Origin: Candidatus Latescibacterota bacterium
Lineage (GTDB): Bacteria > Latescibacterota > UBA2968
Assembly: GCA_965116885.1 (NCBI GenBank)
Contig: OZ220741.1
Coordinates: 3,744,001-3,808,000 of the forward strand
Direction: 5' to 3'
Length of the DNA stretch: 64,000 nt
How positions within the stretch are numbered: position 1 is the first letter of the stretch; each line of letters opens with the position of its first letter. Below the pieces are notes generated by a model, which saw only the letters and a list, made by a program, of their open reading frames with translations, was not told the origin of the DNA and did no database searches. A program made the position numbers and the translations under genes. This document shows positions 54,285-59,827 of this stretch, in pieces.

Positions 54285-56316
54285 GATACTTTTCGCCTAT
54301 TACTACCAAAATTGGCAAGCCATCCCGTATTTCTATTTGGGCGTCGCGAGACACTGTTTCGGTTTCTCCGGTGCATAGATGATAGATGCGAACAGGGCTG
54401 ATGTCGAGTGAAAATTCAAGGGTGTCGAGATCGAAAATATCTTGGGCAGGTAGTACGAGAGCGAGTTGGCGATTGGTGTTGTTGAGATACAGGACACGGT
54501 TGTTTTCGCATATTTGTTCGGCGGGATCTGTAAAGGTGGTGTCGTGAACGGGACTGTTGAGGAGTGTGTTCAGACAACGCAGGGTGTGAAAGGGAGGACG
54601 GGGGTTGCAGAGGGTGTCGAGCAATCCATGTGTGACATCCATTGTGCGGTCAAAGTCGGTGAGTGGATCGACAAAGAGACGTGCGCCTGGCAGGCGGACA
54701 ATGGCAAATGTGGCTTCGGCAATTCGGCGGGCATTGGTGCTGTCGTTCTGCGCGTCTAATTCGAGGGATATGTCGATGTAGCCGATATTCGAGTATTTGC
54801 GTTCGCTCAGGGATTGGATATAAGTCCAGGGCGATTGGTTGGGCGGTACGCGGCTGAGTACGCGCTGCAGGTGCATATCGGCATTTTGAAGGGTCGCATT
54901 CAGGTTTTCGAGTTCGTCGAGTTGATAACCCATTCGGGTTCGCAGGTGTTGTTTGCCGTGTACGCGTTCGTTGGGGATGATGGGACAAATCGAGAGTTCT
55001 GCGAGTTCTGCACATCGATTGAGTGTTTCGCAAACTTCATCGGATGATAGCGAAGGATCAGATATCTGAATTTCCCAGTTCTGTATGAGATCGAGGTTGG
55101 CTTTGATGTGTTCGGGCAATGAGGCGATGCGCGGTTCGAGGAATGTGGCAATGGGCGTTATCCCTTCGGCACAGAGCATTTCGAGGCGTGTGCGCTGAAA
55201 GGGGTCGCGCAGGTCGCGCCAGGGAAAGCGCACAAATTTGGTGCCGAGTTCTATGCAGGCAAAAAGATGCTGGTCATTGCGCACTTTTTGACGTATGACA
55301 GAGGGATAGGCGATTGGGAGTTCCGCAATGGGCGTGATGGGGTGGCGAAGGGTGAGCCCAACGGGGGAAGACAGAGTGGCGGATGTGCAGGTGACGAGGC
55401 GGTCGCGGGCAGGGCGTTTTGTTTCGCCTTTTGTGCGGATGAAGTGGATGTCGGTGTGTTCGGCGCGTATGCGGAGGAGATAAAATCCCAGCTTGCCCGT
55501 GTCGTCTCGCCCCTGTTCGGGTGGCGGCGCACTGGCATAGAGATGACCGAATCCCGGGCGCGTAAAGGATGTGGAAGGGGTGATGAAATAGCGCGTTTTT
55601 CCAATTTTGTCATAAAAGGGATAGTGTACGTGTGCAGCGAAGAGGCGTTCGATTCCGTATTTTTCAATCAGTGCGAGGAGGCGGTCTCGATCTGGCGGGC
55701 TGATATTGTCGTAGTGTCCCAATCCCGGTTCATTTTTATCCCCAAGATACAAGGGCAGGTGAAAGAAGAGAAAGAGCCGCTGATTTTTATGTTTTTCAAG
55801 GTCGGATTCAAACCATTCCCACTGGTCGTCTGCTTCGGGGATTTTTGAGTTGAGGATCTGGGAATTGAGCACGATAAAATGACAATCGTCGCGGTCAAAA
55901 CTGTACCAGGAAGGTCCAAAGAGTTCGTGGAAGAATGCGAGCGATTCCGCGGTTGCCGCATGGGTGGGCATGGTGGGGTCAGCTTTGTCGCCGATATCGT
56001 GATTGCCAGCGACATAGTGGGGAGAAATATTACAGGCGCGTATCTGATCGCGCGCTTCGAACATCGCGCGTTTGAAGTCCGGTGTTCCGGGATATTCCTG
56101 GACGAGGTCGCCCATGTGGATGACAAAGTCCGCCCCTATATCTGATACCTGTTGCAGGGCAATGCCAGCACGCTGGGTTTGCACGCGGCGCGATTCAAAT
56201 TCGAGGGGGCGGTCGCCAACGTCAATCATGTAATGCGTGTCGGCGATGACCACGTATTCAAATTGAGCGGGGGGGAGGTGGGTTTTGTCGAAGATTATTC
56301 TTTTTCTGCTTTCCAT
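54256..56316 (-). CDS. Calcineurin-like metallophosphoesterase with a large uncharacterised C-terminal domain
   Basis: DTH, GD, GNHD, H.P, AHVH in the N-terminal ~290 aa. Confidence 0.75.
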   Translation of the reverse strand: MESRKRIIFDKTHLPPAQFEYVVIADTHYMIDVGDRPLEFESRRVQTQRAGIALQQVSDIGADFVIHMGDLVQEYPGTPDFKRAMFEARDQIRACNISPHYVAGNHDIGDKADPTMPTHAATAESLAFFHELFGPSWYSFDRDDCHFIVLNSQILNSKIPEADDQWEWFESDLEKHKNQRLFLFFHLPLYLGDKNEPGLGHYDNISPPDRDRLLALIEKYGIERLFAAHVHYPFYDKIGKTRYFITPSTSFTRPGFGHLYASAPPPEQGRDDTGKLGFYLLRIRAEHTDIHFIRTKGETKRPARDRLVTCTSATLSSPVGLTLRHPITPIAELPIAYPSVIRQKVRNDQHLFACIELGTKFVRFPWRDLRDPFQRTRLEMLCAEGITPIATFLEPRIASLPEHIKANLDLIQNWEIQISDPSLSSDEVCETLNRCAELAELSICPIIPNERVHGKQHLRTRMGYQLDELENLNATLQNADMHLQRVLSRVPPNQSPWTYIQSLSERKYSNIGYIDISLELDAQNDSTNARRIAEATFAIVRLPGARLFVDPLTDFDRTMDVTHGLLDTLCNPRPPFHTLRCLNTLLNSPVHDTTFTDPAEQICENNRVLYLNNTNRQLALVLPAQDIFDLDTLEFSLDISPVRIYHLCTGETETVSRDAQIEIRDGLPILVVIGEKYPQMNADERR

Positions 56317-56720
56317 TCGGCGATTTTTTCATCGGCTTTGCGACGCAGTTCGCGGCCCTTGTCCGGGGTGGGGTCTTCGATGAGGCCATAGACCTGGCGG
56401 CCTTCGTGATCTTCGGGTAAGTATTCTGTAATGGGCATGCCTTCAGGGGTGACAAAGAGCAGGCAGTGACAGTATTTGAAAATTTTCATTTCGTCACAGG
56501 CACAGACCCATTCGCGGCTGCGTTCGAGTTCGGCCTTTTTGTCGGGATAAAAGTTGCAGGGGCAAAGCGGACGGCCCAGTTCGTCGATGTTTTCTGCAAG
56601 ACCGCAGATGACTGTGTCGGCGACTTCCCGGGTCGGATGCGGCGATGTCCCGGTTTTTTCCCAGTATTTTTCCGTGTATATCTGCATTCTTTTGAGGCTT
56701 TTTTCTGTGGGTTCTGACAT
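56295..56720 (-). CDS. Ferredoxin:thioredoxin reductase catalytic (beta) subunit-like protein
   Basis: G.PLCPC...CAC...CHCLLF [4Fe-4S]/disulfide motif set. Confidence 0.85.
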   Translation of the reverse strand: MSEPTEKSLKRMQIYTEKYWEKTGTSPHPTREVADTVICGLAENIDELGRPLCPCNFYPDKKAELERSREWVCACDEMKIFKYCHCLLFVTPEGMPITEYLPEDHEGRQVYGLIEDPTPDKGRELRRKADEKIAEWKAEKE

Positions 56721-56766
56721 GGCGATACCGATCCTTTCTTTCTAGCACATCTTAACATAAGAAGTG

Positions 56767-57990
56767 TTAGACAATGCATGCTTGTTCAAGCATGGAGTGA
56801 TCTCTCAACGCACGCAGAAAGATTCCACGTGCTCCGTTTATATCTCGATCCATTTGTTGACCATCTTTACTCACCACCGTCTTGCGTCCTCCAAGATTTG
56901 CTATCACTTCACCTGTCCAACTCACTGTCTTGGACGTGTAGGCTTCATTGACAATCAGCACACGCTTGTTGTTCTGCCACGCTTTCCACTGGAGAAAAAT
57001 CTTAAAACGGTGGTGCGCCCAGGTCAGCATACTTCGCACAGACTTTGAACGTATCCTACGCTTCGATCTTTGTATCATATCTGATACATTGAAGGACGGC
57101 AATAAGATCAGATCAAAGTTATCGACAAGCCATCTGGCACACTGATGATGCAACTCATCAACAAGATTGCGAATGCGGCTTCGCATACGTCTTTGTGCAT
57201 GGCGCATACGCTTTTTGCGATAGGATAACTTTTCTCGTTTTGTCCTGCTGATCAAGTTGTCAAGGTGGTGACACATACGAACAATATGACCAAAGTCATT
57301 CTCACCAACCTTGCCACAATTGGTCGGGCTAAAGAAGGTCTGAAAACTCCGTATCCCTGGATCGAGTGCCACCACACGTCCTTGGGTCTCGGTTGCATTG
57401 CGATGGACTTTTTGGGGGACACACAGATAGTAGGCATCTCGTATTTTGACAAGACGACTATCAAAACATTCTTCTGGCAAAGACTCTGACAGTTTTAACA
57501 CGCCAAGTATGGTATGATAAACTCCTTTCTCGCTTATGGTTGACTTGGTGATATAGCAACTCTGTATCGGATGTTTCCTGCTTCTGAAACGCAACTTGGC
57601 GTAGCTCTCGCTATTCTTGCGTTCCTTGTTATATCTGATCACGGCTTTGCAAGACAAGCAGGCCTCCTTGACAGCATTGCGTTTGATCTGGTATGGCACA
57701 GACAAAAACCGCTCTGGAATAACACATGCCTTAATGATGTGCCACATTTTGATGTAATTCGGATAAGGAGCCGCTTCTCCTGTCAGCACTTCTACTGTCT
57801 GGTTGTAGAACCACCGTGCAGCATCCAGCCATACACGGATGATTTGACGCTGATTATTCACTGGATAAACTCTAATCTTCTTTGATTGCCTGTCTGTACC
57901 TTCGTAGTCCGTGCAGGCGACGAGAGAACGTATAGAGGATGGGCAAAATATCTTGTGTGAGTTCCGCTTTGGGGCTTGCACTTGGGTCAT
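56767..57990 (-). CDS. tnpB: IS607 TnpB, Fanzor2-like (rearranged RuvC) RNA-guided nuclease
   Basis: KKIRVYP, ARWFYN, VALDPGIRSF, ILLPSF, VNEAYTSKT, MDRDINGARGI. The frame is open up to 58263, so the true start is uncertain. Confidence 0.85.
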   Translation of the reverse strand: MTQVQAPKRNSHKIFCPSSIRSLVACTDYEGTDRQSKKIRVYPVNNQRQIIRVWLDAARWFYNQTVEVLTGEAAPYPNYIKMWHIIKACVIPERFLSVPYQIKRNAVKEACLSCKAVIRYNKERKNSESYAKLRFRSRKHPIQSCYITKSTISEKGVYHTILGVLKLSESLPEECFDSRLVKIRDAYYLCVPQKVHRNATETQGRVVALDPGIRSFQTFFSPTNCGKVGENDFGHIVRMCHHLDNLISRTKREKLSYRKKRMRHAQRRMRSRIRNLVDELHHQCARWLVDNFDLILLPSFNVSDMIQRSKRRIRSKSVRSMLTWAHHRFKIFLQWKAWQNNKRVLIVNEAYTSKTVSWTGEVIANLGGRKTVVSKDGQQMDRDINGARGIFLRALRDHSMLEQACIV

Positions 57991-58360
57991 TGAGAACCAG
58001 AACCTCGTTCCCGTTTTGCTGTGCCATCCATTCGATGAGTTCAAAGCCAAATCTTGCAAGGCGGTCTTTGTTGGCAACCACAATCTGGAGCTTTTCTCCG
58101 CGATGTAGTCGTTCCAGTAACTTGAGGAGTCCTTTTCGCTTGTAGTTGAGTCTGCCGCTAGTGTCTCTGACAATTTCCGATCCTTTGAATTGCTCTTGCA
58201 TTGACGAAATTTGTTTTTTAAGGTCGTCTTTTTGGTTTTTGATACTAACTCGGCAGTAGCCAAACAACGGTCGCGTCACTTGCTCGGCGCAAGAAGTCAT
58301 CGACAGCCTAACGGCTATACCCACCCTCCGTACGAAAAGTCTTTATGCATCCCAACGTTG
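57872..58360 (-). pseudogene. tnpA: IS607 TnpA serine recombinase, disrupted
   Basis: YCRVS..QKDDL..Q, SGRLNYKRKGL, KDRLARFGFELI, SRRLHGLR. The upstream frame IKTFRTEGGYSR*AVDDFLRRASDATVV has a TAG at 58310-58308 and needs a frameshift near 58262 to join. Confidence 0.75.
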
Positions 58361-58390
58361 CCACTTTTTGTTACTTTGCATCACCTTCAG

Positions 58391-58432
58391 ATTTTTCAAA
58401 TGTGTTGTGGACTTACAACATGGTTGAAAAAT
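58391..58432. other. Imperfect hairpin (terminator or IS left-end structure)
   Basis: ATTTTTCAA..TGTTGT...ACAACA..TTGAAAAAT. Confidence 0.4.
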
Positions 58433-58437
58433 GGGCA

Positions 58438-59742
58438 TCATTCCCACTGCTTTCCCCATAACTTCTGTGCAATCTCCGCGACATTCAATTGATCGATGTC
58501 GTCTCCAATAACTTTTCGCAAATTCTCATACCGAGTACTCTGCATACCACCGCGCGACGACTTGACATATTGAGTCTCATTGAGTGCTCCACAGAAGTAG
58601 AGTTGCCCAGGTGCATTGTCCCAGCCGAGTAACGCCTTTGTGTCTTTGAGACTTTCGATGATTTTGTTGTCGTACTCATCGGTATCTCGCCCTTCCATCA
58701 ACGTCTTTTTTAGATTTACCCCGTCATATTTAATATCAAAAATACTATCAATCTCCAAAATTGCCCGTACGGCCTTGTCTTTGTATAACCCCAAAAACCG
58801 ATGCCTCTTGCTATAACGACGATCTGATGGACAAAAGTAAACGCCGTATTTTTTGTTTATCTCAAGGCTGTTACCACAAGGTACCATTCTCATAAGATAT
58901 TTCGATGGATCGAAGGATTGCGCTTGGACAGCGAATTGCCTGTTGAGATAATCCATAGATTTTCGAAGTTCTGCTCTCGCATCGCCCGGGGGGATGCTGC
59001 ATTCAAAACCGCAGTAGTAATCGTAACCGATGTCGGACAGTGATTTGAGGGGGGGACCAAAATCCGTGTGACCATAGCCCGGCAAAATGCGATTGCTGTC
59101 GGCCAGATGTACATTGGCGATGTGTTTATCCCCTGCGCGGATGGCGTCGGCGAGGTCGGCTTCCTCGATGCTCATGTGGAAGAGATCAGCCATGGTGGCG
59201 ATAGATGGGCTGCCCACTGCTTCGCAGATTTCAACGCCCTGAGCAACTGTGCAGGGCCACCACTGTTCGTAGCGGTTCAGGGGTTCGATGATCAGAAGAC
59301 TGTCGCACGCTTCGGCATGCGGTGCGATGTCTCGTTTGAGAATTTCGATGAGGAGATCTTTTTCAAGTGCAGATGTGCTGTACAGGGGAGAAAGATCGGG
59401 AATGCGTTGCCCACCGCCCATTTTGATGCCGATGAGCGGTGGGAATATCACGCCTACACCGCCGACTTCAGCACACAGGGTGAGGGCGTCGTTAATGGAT
59501 TTTACGGCTGTGCGGCGTTCTTCGGGACGTGCGTCGAGCAGGCGATTGCCGCCCCGGGCAGAGCAAATATTGGGCACGATACCCGTCGCGTCTGACGCTG
59601 CTTTGATCTCATCTGCAAAATCTGCGGTGCTGCTATTGGTGATTTCTATGCCGGAAAATCCGAGTTCTTTGAGGGTCTGGAATTTCTCCATCAGGGTGTT
59701 GCCAGGGGCCATGGGTTCGCGAAGAGAATATTTGATGGTCAT
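58438..59742 (-). CDS. Sugar-phosphate isomerase/epimerase (xylose isomerase-like TIM barrel) fused to an unrelated C-terminal domain
   Basis: IEPLNRYE, DLFHM.IEE, VHLADSNR..PG.GH.DF, GFE; about 165 extra residues after YLNRQF. Confidence 0.8.
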   Translation of the reverse strand: MTIKYSLREPMAPGNTLMEKFQTLKELGFSGIEITNSSTADFADEIKAASDATGIVPNICSARGGNRLLDARPEERRTAVKSINDALTLCAEVGGVGVIFPPLIGIKMGGGQRIPDLSPLYSTSALEKDLLIEILKRDIAPHAEACDSLLIIEPLNRYEQWWPCTVAQGVEICEAVGSPSIATMADLFHMSIEEADLADAIRAGDKHIANVHLADSNRILPGYGHTDFGPPLKSLSDIGYDYYCGFECSIPPGDARAELRKSMDYLNRQFAVQAQSFDPSKYLMRMVPCGNSLEINKKYGVYFCPSDRRYSKRHRFLGLYKDKAVRAILEIDSIFDIKYDGVNLKKTLMEGRDTDEYDNKIIESLKDTKALLGWDNAPGQLYFCGALNETQYVKSSRGGMQSTRYENLRKVIGDDIDQLNVAEIAQKLWGKQWE

Positions 59743-59827
59743 AATCAGTTCCGATATGGATTGGGAATTTATGAAAACGCCTACAGACAATATACCGCCT
59801 TATGGATAAAAGGCAAGGTCAGGACGA

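Follow-up and report, generated by a model that had tools for sequence, protein, structure and literature searches.

A probable Fanzor2-related tnpB gene without a zinc finger, its N-terminal domain overprinted on tnpA, in a decayed IS607-family element of a Latescibacterota bacterium

Fanzors are eukaryotic RNA-guided nucleases under development as compact genome editors. Fanzor2s are connected with IS607-type elements (PMC13565253, a review), and the bacterial source of Fanzors has been described as a narrow, cyanobacterial, zinc-finger-bearing clade, the pro-Fanzors (PMC10711439; this source, PMC13565253, PMC10530073, PMC11832414 and 10.1101/2023.11.30.569447 are cited here for parts of their content). 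ApmFz2, a mimivirus Fanzor2 (PDB 9B0L; TnpB-like protein L79), has the catalytic triad D324/E467/D501, in which the Glu is shifted by 50 residues, and its N-terminal domain (NTD), resolved by cryo-electron microscopy, contacts the RuvC domain, the guide-RNA pseudoknot, and the target DNA (PMC11832414). TvTnpB, a TnpB2 protein, is an active RNA-guided nuclease without collateral cleavage (PMC10530073, Sci Adv 2023). Here, we report on a stretch of 64,000 nucleotides (hereafter the window) from contig OZ220741.1 of a Candidatus Latescibacterota bacterium (GCA_965116885.1, positions 3,744,001 to 3,808,000). An open reading frame (ORF) on its minus strand is very probably the tnpB of an IS607-family insertion sequence that belongs to the pro-Fanzor/TnpB2/Fanzor2 lineage, more precisely to a zinc-finger-less subclade with an NTD overprinted on the transposase gene tnpA, and the copy in the window is a decayed one.

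The tnpB ORF, 56767..58263 on the minus strand, comprises 498 codons from TTG 58263 to TAA 56767-56769, and residue numbers throughout refer to this frame. An initial annotation, made from the sequence alone, had recognized a Fanzor2-like protein by DPG in RuvC-I, ILLPSF at the canonical RuvC-II site, an alternative Glu in VNEAYTSKT, and DRDING in RuvC-III, all without CxxC pairs, and every one of these features was found in the frame; the sibling copy in the same genome likewise has no CxxC pairs. E440 is invariant in two homologue alignments, and the segment E440-AYTSKT-V447 places six residues between the Glu and the first ligand position, exactly the published pro-Fanzor pattern (PMC10711439). 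Because this spacing fits the pattern and a motif census of 350 sequences (see below) points the same way, the arrangement is, as far as sequence comparison goes, not a product of chance. The protein passed the cut-offs of Pfam PF07282 (Cas12f1-like_TNB; 49.6 bits, cut-off 26.3) and PF12323 (HTH_OrfB_IS605; 23.1 bits, cut-off 21), two families also found in ISDra2 TnpB and in more distant TnpB-like matches of the same genome, and it scored 23.0 with PF01385 (OrfB_IS605), below the cut-off of 30.5. A score of 93.9 with NCBIfam NF040570 (guided_TnpB), under the cut-off of 100, speaks against the assignment. The link to IS607 made in the initial annotation was borne out, as the overlapping ORF 57872..58324 on the same strand matches NCBIfam NF033518 (transpos_IS607) with 129 bits (cut-off 110), over profile positions 50-186 of 187 only.

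The tnpB product shares with the pro-Fanzors of PMC10711439 the DPG motif, the Glu six residues before the first ligand position, and an IS607 TnpA partner; a right-end guide RNA with a fixed flanking dinucleotide is expected as well, and the protein grouped with zinc-finger-bearing DPG/alternative-Glu proteins in both trees described below. It differs in its host, a member of the Latescibacterota, whereas PMC10711439 calls pro-Fanzors mostly, or exclusively, cyanobacterial. Furthermore, the search pattern of that work demanded CxxC...CxxC, which is absent here, so that proteins like the one in the window could not be found with it. The description of TnpB2/TvTnpB is also alike, in that the canonical RuvC-II Glu is lost (to Pro or Gly) and a compensating Glu lies ~45 residues away (PMC10530073); the main text of that paper makes no mention of zinc or a zinc finger (ZnF).

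When PDB sequences were searched with phmmer, the only strong match was chain 9b0l_P, i.e., ApmFz2 (E = 1.7e-21), and every canonical TnpB or Cas12f chain was at E ≥ 0.014. An AlphaFold2 model of the 498-aa frame, computed from a 71-sequence alignment, had a pLDDT of 80.9 and a pTM of 0.78, with the NTD elements confident. Foldseek placed 9b0l first (E = 9.9e-23, versus 1.4e-14 for ISDra2 TnpB, 8h1j), and VIA-align superposed 418 residues with a Z of 28.8, model residues 46-491 on chain residues 53-518. The other 49 entries among the VIA-align matches listed start at model residue 82 or later, the TnpB/Cas12f entries at 118-127. ApmFz2 is the sole structure among the matches listed in which an NTD (residues 53-130, RuvC-R and thumb) aligns with residues 46-121 of the model, and phmmer aligned query residues 62-162 (from WLPT) with L79 residues 68-169 (from WIPT). 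We conclude that the ~125 N-terminal residues are a Fanzor2-type NTD, matched by the ApmFz2 structure only. In the HMMER alignment, D301/E440/D474 were paired with D324/E467/D501 of L79. The alternative Glu of the initial annotation thereby aligns with the catalytic E467 and would belong to the active site; a point against is that the D-E-D geometry was placed by alignment to the solved Fanzor2 structure and not by distances in the model.

Both proteins carry DPG in RuvC-I and a Glu six residues before the zinc-ribbon position, and both have a disordered N-terminal tail (residues 1-53 in ApmFz2, predicted for 1-46 here). In contrast to ApmFz2, the protein in the window comes from a bacterial chromosome (one contig, 5.56 Mb, 98% complete) instead of a eukaryote or a eukaryotic virus, the two are only 20-22% identical, all four ligands of the zinc-bound ZnF of ApmFz2 are replaced, and the NTD is encoded over tnpA in another frame. 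The core domains WED/REC/RuvC/TNB are shared with ISDra2 TnpB (PDB 8H1J and 8EXA; VIA-align Z 25.6-26.1). The IS607 TnpBs of ISXfa1 (PMC10711439) and ISFba1 (PDB 8IAZ, PMC11061315) come from the same transposon family with a serine recombinase TnpA, and ISFba1 TnpB has the same RNA-guided nuclease fold (8iaz, VIA-align Z 23.3); it aligned only from model residue 124, so structures of its type are without the NTD.

The absence of the zinc finger, with Val, Thr, Ser, and Asp at the ligand sites, was described correctly in the initial annotation, but it is not peculiar to this gene. A word-indexed search yielded 3364 homologues at E ≤ 0.001. The segment corresponding to NEAYTSKT was readable in 116 of the best 120 of these (47-91% identity), the pattern having failed to capture it in P0068, P0089, P0094, and P0105, and the four cysteines were present in none of the 116. 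Named relatives among the best homologues were cyanobacterial, namely, Moorena, Dapis, Aphanothece, Halothece, and Hydrocoleum. An exhaustive phmmer search of cluster representatives gave 5997 matches at E ≤ 0.001 and 903 at E ≤ 1e-30, of which the more distant ones (~33-40% identity) have CxxC...CxxC. The motif census was read from one HMM alignment of 350 near-full-length sequences that were not de-replicated, consisting of 344 ingroup members and six canonical TnpBs of the same genome. The canonical RuvC-II site of the ingroup held no Glu at all (341 Pro, 2 Gly, and 1 Leu), while the alternative site held Glu in 342 of the 344. At most one zinc ligand was retained in 264 of these 344 proteins, cyanobacterial members included, two in a single one, and three or four in 79. 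In the six canonical TnpBs the pattern was reversed, with DVG, Glu in the canonical and Pro in the alternative position, and all four Cys; the TnpBs of ISXfa1 and ISFba1 presumably have the canonical Glu as well. These six were taken as the outgroup from eight further TnpB-like matches in the genome (L003-L008 plus two more, G000:C1), whose open frames of 377-379 aa are 22-27% identical to the tnpB product and are too short to hold a 125-residue extension.

Two trees were built and rooted on the canonical TnpBs of the genome, with no curated Fanzor1/2 set among their rows. In both, the DPG/alternative-Glu clade that contains the tnpB product was separated from the canonical TnpBs with a support of 100, so the protein did not fall among the latter, one of the two outcomes that the initial annotation had named as refuting it. 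FastTree (181 rows, <75% identity) recovered a clade in which 112 of 113 rows are zinc-finger-less (SH-like support 95), and IQ-TREE (LG+C20+F+G4, 68 subsampled rows) recovered one in which 36 of 37 are (SH-aLRT 99). The zinc-finger-less clade is nested within a four-cysteine grade in both trees, in which the copy L087 from a giant-virus metagenome-assembled genome (MAG) is basal. The label requires at least three changes in either tree, the exceptions being P0196/P0200 and P0145. Together with the motif census and the PDB sequence and fold matches, the trees support the proposed membership in the IS607-linked, Fanzor2-related lineage with a rearranged Glu. Loss of the zinc finger is, by this alignment-based account, a trait of a large derived subclade including cyanobacterial and phage copies and not private to the gene in the window. 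The subclade replaced the four cysteines and kept the β-ribbon, which is confident in the model (pLDDT 90-93), and Cas12f1-like_TNB is still matched. A point on the other side is that the loss could impair activity; among the papers covered here, none describes a test of a zinc-finger-less member.

Three further sequences stood out. With four cysteines, DMG in RuvC-I, and a Gly where the old Glu stood, P0145 nevertheless lies inside the zinc-finger-less clade in both trees; its amino-acid composition is odd, and it may be recombinant or misplaced. L082 and L084, on giant-virus MAG contigs, are Fanzor2-like ORFs whose REC region contains a Cys-rich insertion and whose N-terminal part is short; they match the family profile only from position 278.

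The initial annotation had taken the nuclease to be compact, at ~400 aa. This size does not hold for the family: the proteins have ~500-550 aa and the intact genes ~510-550 codons, and the first 125-150 codons lie over the 3′ part of tnpA in its +1 frame. KKIRVYP, where a canonical TnpB would start, corresponds to residue ~127 of the 498-aa frame, and the extension before it comprises, in the model, a disordered stretch (residues 1-46), a helix spanning 52-60 (YWND...LWLPT), and a strand spanning 92-96 (WFS). Gene-finder calls of homologues are mostly 480-550 aa long, and their N-terminal parts can be aligned through the motifs PYW(N/S), LWLPT, and SWFS, with W50, L61, S88, W89, and F90 being near-invariant in the 71-sequence alignment. 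The TnpB frame is open for at least 87 codons upstream of the canonical start in 79 of 82 loci, and tnpB lies in the +1 frame of tnpA in all 69 loci with a near-full-length tnpA. Over the last 125 codons of tnpA, the +1 frame is free of stops in 38 of 41 nonredundant loci, versus 0.52 expected from synonymous-codon shuffles, and the mean number of stops is 0.10, versus 4.43 in the shuffles. The controls showed no such depletion: the +2 frame is stop-free in none of the 41 loci (8.0 stops observed versus 8.8 expected), and the +1 frame over the first 60 tnpA codons is stop-free in 3 of 41 (2.73 versus 1.92 stops).

One could object that the long N-terminal frame is an artifact of a conserved tnpA and that the true TnpB has ~370-407 aa, starting from M92 (57990) or near KKIRVYP. 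NCBI has annotated some cyanobacterial relatives at 383-420 aa (P0075, P0088, P0102, P0114, and P0115), and the N-terminal conservation partly echoes TnpA motifs, KKTTL being the +1 reading of QKDDL and LWLPTKT that of IVVAHKD. The constraint on synonymous sites in the overlap is modest, which also weighs against dual coding: synonymous codon identity along the tnpA alignment is ~0.23 in columns 0-69, 0.28-0.43 in columns 70-149, and 0.40-0.41 in columns 180-199, and it drops to 0.23-0.25 in columns 150-179, though these are inside the overlap. An artifact of this kind would not purge stops from the +1 frame in 38 of 41 loci while leaving the +2 frame and the first 60 codons alone, nor would it align with the ApmFz2 NTD in both sequence (WLPT 62 with WIPT 68) and fold (model 46-121 with chain 53-130); moreover, the near-invariant Trp residues demand fixed synonymous positions in tnpA. 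We therefore regard this objection as very improbable and read the extension as a genuine overprinted NTD. A Fanzor2-type NTD, an N-terminal extension, or an overlap with tnpA in bacterial pro-Fanzors is not mentioned in the main text or preprint of PMC10711439 (its supplements lying outside this statement) or in the parts of PMC10530073 and PMC13565253 covered here.

Two further ideas about the N terminus were discarded. The basic tail as a ready-made nuclear-localization signal was suggested by 11 Lys and Arg among 46 residues here, but a family-wide enrichment is absent, as the K+R fraction of 71 long homologues is 0.143 in the tail versus 0.173 in the rest of the protein. Four metagenome gene calls (P0005, P0055, P0043, and P0072) are apparent TnpA-TnpB fusions of 515-577 aa, P0072 switching frame twice. 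P0005 and P0055 were rejected as programmed fusions since their frame hops fall at different points, and all four are probably products of indels or assembly errors in a dual-coded region.

The window copy of the element survives as an immobile, decaying remnant; it has lost its left end together with the beginning of tnpA, and tnpA is a pseudogene. Its sibling in the same genome (L002, C1:1363248-1364468 in locus G000:C1:1361748-1365968) encodes a protein 90% identical. Homology between the two copies runs from ~58362 to ...GAAAGGATCGG (56728), which is 8 nt before the ATG of a gene for the ferredoxin-thioredoxin reductase beta chain. Upstream of 58362, local alignment to the sibling scored 15, versus 16.6 ± 2.4 in shuffles; being no better than chance, it leaves the window copy without a left end and a tnpA start, i.e., 5′-truncated. 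The same scores led us to reject a left end that had been picked by eye in the window (GAGATTGCACAGAAGT versus GAGGTTGTACAAAGT). The left flank of the empty allele (see below) was not found in the window at up to three mismatches and had a single chance-level match in the genome, so the left junction of this copy is undefined. What remains of tnpA has an in-frame TAG at 58308-58310 and, compared with L002 and more distant relatives, a 1-bp insertion at 58260/58261. Since the insertion runs the TnpB start (M..SMTSCAEQVT.PLF in L002) into the TnpA catalytic domain, the 150-aa ORF 57872..58324 is a chimera of a TnpB-frame N terminus and the catalytic domain without a helix-turn-helix (HTH). The same insertion lies at the start of the 498-codon frame and has cost tnpB its native start (~21 codons in L002). 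L002 is intact in these respects: the element spans ~L002:1003-2764, from the left junction AATAGA/GGTTGTACAAAG to the right end GGATCGG, its TnpB frame is open for 518-524 codons, and its TnpA is a full 210 aa with MerR-type HTH and resolvase domains, which are not intact in the window. L002 is, going by these features, probably an active, autonomous copy.

The initial annotation had called the nuclease probably active, and for the copy in the window this is doubtful. With moderate confidence, we think that it no longer makes a full-length working nuclease. A possible reading, to which we give rather less credence, is that nuclease and guide RNA still work together as a module that protects its insertion site from being lost, the protein being made from TTG 58263 or some other start, perhaps through read-through from the co-oriented gene upstream. 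Several observations speak for such a module and against the copy being dead: the 498-codon frame is uninterrupted, D301/E440/D474 is intact, and so are the right end and the guide-RNA region; dN/dS versus L002 is 0.17 (dS 0.31; 407 aligned tnpB codons), and within the overlap, omega between the two genomic copies is lower for the TnpB frame (0.30) than for the TnpA frame (0.62). In addition, the lost N-terminal part falls in the tail predicted to be disordered, and an upstream ORF (58438..59790) is co-oriented. On the other hand, the native start and ~21 codons are severed, no obvious ribosome-binding site was seen before TTG 58263, the 5′ region of the element, presumably the site of its promoter, is gone, and the low dN/dS mostly reflects the time before decay. 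For experiments, L002 is better suited than this ordinary decaying remnant.

The upstream ORF 58438-59790 on the minus strand, which adjoins the element, encodes a xylose-isomerase-like TIM-barrel protein of 450 aa. In 16 of 20 other genomes of the genus, its best match (86-94% identity) stops at query residue 284-291, and residues 286-450, with a low GC content (0.44-0.45) and no Pfam match, occur elsewhere or as a neighbor (61% in G087). The ORF looks like a gene fusion beside the element.

Both boundaries of the element were compared across loci, and the features of the window copy are collected in Table 1. At the right end, an A-rich run leads into (G/T)ATCGG. This arrangement is found again in dozens of phage, giant-virus-MAG, and same-genus loci, whose flanks diverge directly after it. 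GG stands at 13 left junctions as well as at the right ends of dozens of loci, i.e., as matching dinucleotides of the IS607 type without target-site duplication, and the terminal GG is presumed to be the IS607 crossover dinucleotide.

Table 1. Coordinates of the tnpB gene, the tnpA remnant, and the candidate guide-RNA parts in the window
Feature	Position	Strand	Basis
RuvC-I Asp D301, ALDPG (DPG motif)	57361-57363	-	aligned with ApmFz2 D324
Pro389 at canonical RuvC-II Glu site, ILLPSF	57097-57099	-	motif alignment
Alternative RuvC-II Glu E440, VNEAYTSKT	56944-56946	-	aligned with ApmFz2 E467
RuvC-III Asp D474, DRDING	56842-56844	-	aligned with ApmFz2 D501
Degenerate zinc ribbon, ligand positions V447/T450/S465/D467	56863-56925	-	motif alignment, model
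N-terminal extension, residues 1-126, +1 frame over tnpA remnant	57886..58263	-	matches Fanzor2 NTD (RuvC-R and thumb)
Canonical TnpB core WED/REC/RuvC/TNB, residues 127-498	56770..57885	-	Pfam/NCBIfam, structure alignment
tnpA remnant (IS607 serine recombinase, catalytic domain only)	57872..58362	-	profile match, alignment to sibling
Right end GGATCGG, A-rich run before	56728..56734	-	copy alignment, family loci, contigs
Candidate omegaRNA 3′ scaffold, overlaps tnpB end	56728..56826	-	RNA alignment, pairing test
omegaRNA 5′ arm (candidate)	56798-56802	-	long-range helix
omegaRNA hairpin 1 (candidate)	~56776-56794	-	by eye; then motif UGCAUUG
omegaRNA terminal hairpin across stop codon (candidate)	~56741-56775	-	by eye; A-rich run after
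omegaRNA 3′ arm (candidate)	56730-56734	-	long-range helix
Would-be guide flank TATCGCCATGTCAGAACCCA	56708..56727	-	position deduced from PMC10711439

A candidate guide RNA (omegaRNA) was recognized at the 3′ end of tnpB. RNAalifold, applied to 25 loci, predicted a long-range 5-bp helix between GAUNN, ~70 nt upstream within the codons for the (L)GD(T/H)P segment, and NNAUC, which directly precedes the terminal GG. Covariation is seen at two pairs of the helix (AU 15/CG 5/UG 3 and CG 11/GC 6/AU 3), 92.8% of the helix cells are paired versus 77.5% in shuffles (none of 500 shuffles being as high), 17 cells versus 6.5 are changed on both sides, and controls with the arms slid were 14-41% paired. 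Two sequence-variable hairpins and the motif UGCAUUG between the arms were seen by eye in the alignment, and the RNA may reach in the 5′ direction to ~56950. Several observations weigh against this candidate: in the window copy four of the five helix pairs form, A56798 being opposite G56734; the 251-nt 3′ region folds no better than shuffles (z = -1.18); and a crude search for a 5-nt complement succeeded in 49 of 62 loci versus 31 of 62 in the control, which is weak. An Rfam scan of 56300-58700 on both strands gave no match at E ≤ 1, so the guide RNA is not of the RAGATH-18 type or another curated kind, unlike IS607 TnpBs with a RAGATH-18 reRNA (PMC11061315). Also in contrast to ISFba1, whose reRNA lies outside the ORF (PMC11061315), the candidate here overlaps the coding end.

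By analogy with ISXfa1, TvTnpB, and ApmFz2, the 3′ end of tnpB up to ...GGATCGG would be transcribed as the scaffold of the guide RNA, and the DNA flanking the right end would serve as the guide. The nuclease-RNA complex would then cut the empty donor or target site, probably at purine-purine-GG followed by a match to the guide, and repair after cutting would restore the element. The nucleotides at -1 and -2 before GG are purines at all 13 left junctions (5 from phages, L002, 6 from the same genus, and the empty allele of the window), and the right end has TC before GG. In ISXfa1, a fixed flanking nucleotide belongs to the scaffold (PMC10711439), and the target-adjacent motif (TAM) of ApmFz2, GGG, is G-rich and resembles the purine-purine-GG junctions (PMC11832414). 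From the left junctions and these two precedents, we infer that purine-purine-GG would be the target motif; an occupied site would be spared because it reads TC-GG.

Sixteen public RNA-library runs (sponge, marine, unspecified metagenome, or a coded organism name) each contain 5-16% of the words sampled, and four of them were examined as contigs. Contigs of two studies (X1 and X2) match 56500-56724 and then continue into unrelated sequence, which gives an empty allele, ...CTGGA-GG-TATACGCCATG. The empty site reads CTGGA-GG-TATA and the occupied one ATC-GG-TAT, with a 1-nt indel between the two flanks at about guide position 4 (X1 record 1 and X2 record 2); we speculate that the resulting seed mismatch could protect the empty site from cleavage directed by the guide of the element. 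Contigs of two studies (X2 and X7) join the last 91-101 nt of the element (95-99% alike) to other flanks, with the break at 56728/56726. These contigs define the right boundary and reveal a polymorphic insertion. Their coverage of tnpB is partial, and two of them stop near 56818-56826, which is a weak hint at the 5′ end of the RNA. For the idea of a still working module, it counts that parts of tnpB, as well as the right-end junction, are covered by RNA-library contigs that are 95-99% alike; yet they differ by 1-5% from the window copy and cannot prove its transcription, and such contigs cannot show the strand, the ends, or true transcription of the element, which also limits the candidate guide RNA.

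The would-be guide spans the ATG (56718-56720) of the ferredoxin-thioredoxin reductase beta gene, and the copy is immobile yet has retained its frame. With domesticated TnpB repressors (TldR) on record (10.1101/2023.11.30.569447), the gene might have been recruited by the host, for example, as a guide-RNA-directed regulator of the adjacent reductase gene. The catalytic triad is intact here, unlike in the nuclease-dead repressors of that study, the site is polymorphic, two studies having sponge metatranscriptome contigs with the empty allele, only 5 of 168 genomes of the phylum have the family, which forms multicopy, recently moved elements in sister genomes, and the guide position follows simply from the landing site. 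Domestication is thus most improbable, and we keep to the reading of a decayed copy of a mobile element.

The host is a Latescibacterota sponge symbiont and not a cyanobacterium, in line with the noncyanobacterial host of the initial annotation. At E ≤ 1e-40, the 5 family-bearing genomes of the phylum all belong to the genus of the window, 4 being among the 20 other genomes of that genus, and none of 147 genomes in 48 other genera has a member. Copies within the genus are 48-54% identical over nearly the full length, two partial matches being 61-62% identical, and in two sister genomes near-identical copies sit at several different sites, a distribution consistent with horizontal acquisition on more than one occasion and with recent mobility. 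IMG/VR holds 278 stretches that encode relatives. Of 22 flanking ORFs of relatives (11 loci), 9 have PHROG matches, a large terminase and DNA polymerase parts among them, which makes phages plausible carriers. In L017 (IMG/VR), the element lies between two ORFs matching DNA-polymerase families (L017:635-1252 and L017:4056-5021), and in L086 (IMG/VR; L086:4488-6053), it adjoins a large terminase gene.

A search of genome contigs with a single protein as query had as its sole match a 37-residue fragment in a Candidatus Latescibacterota MAG (L009), the flank of which (JAJEDY010000021.1) is 93% identical to the genome of the window over ~3 kb (G000:C1:3037408-3040384). L009:2999-3153 is a solo 155-nt copy of the 3′ end of the element, i.e., the guide-RNA region and the right end, and is 87-89% identical to both genomic copies; it is absent from the matching place in the genome of the window.

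Taken together, these results suggest that the lineage is wider than described, extending to phages, a giant-virus MAG, and one Latescibacterota genus that has acquired several distinct lineages. They also suggest that most sampled members are zinc-finger-less, with either zinc binding dispensable for the fold or the zinc-finger-less proteins a functionally different branch, and that the extra N-terminal domain of Fanzor2 is older than the move into eukaryotic viruses. The dual coding of this domain with the transposase suggests a rare, long (125-150 codons), and conserved gene overlap in a bacterial mobile element, which constrains the evolution or separation of tnpA and tnpB. In the papers covered here, we found no mention of zinc-finger loss in most members, of an NTD predating eukaryotic viruses, or of the dual coding; the supplements of PMC10691335, in which zinc-finger loss is mapped on a TnpB tree, may bear on the first. 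By a narrow margin of belief, we favor the wider view that the Fanzor2 NTD is not a eukaryotic or viral invention and was already there in bacterial and phage IS607 pro-Fanzors, overprinted on the 3′ two-thirds of tnpA and maybe born so, and that a large branch then dropped the zinc finger and was spread by phages to distant hosts such as the Latescibacterota. If this is true, a zinc-independent nuclease with Fanzor2 architecture would exist in nature, and the overlap would tie together the fates of transposase and nuclease, any indel yielding frame-hopping fusions of the kind seen in the window and in metagenomes.

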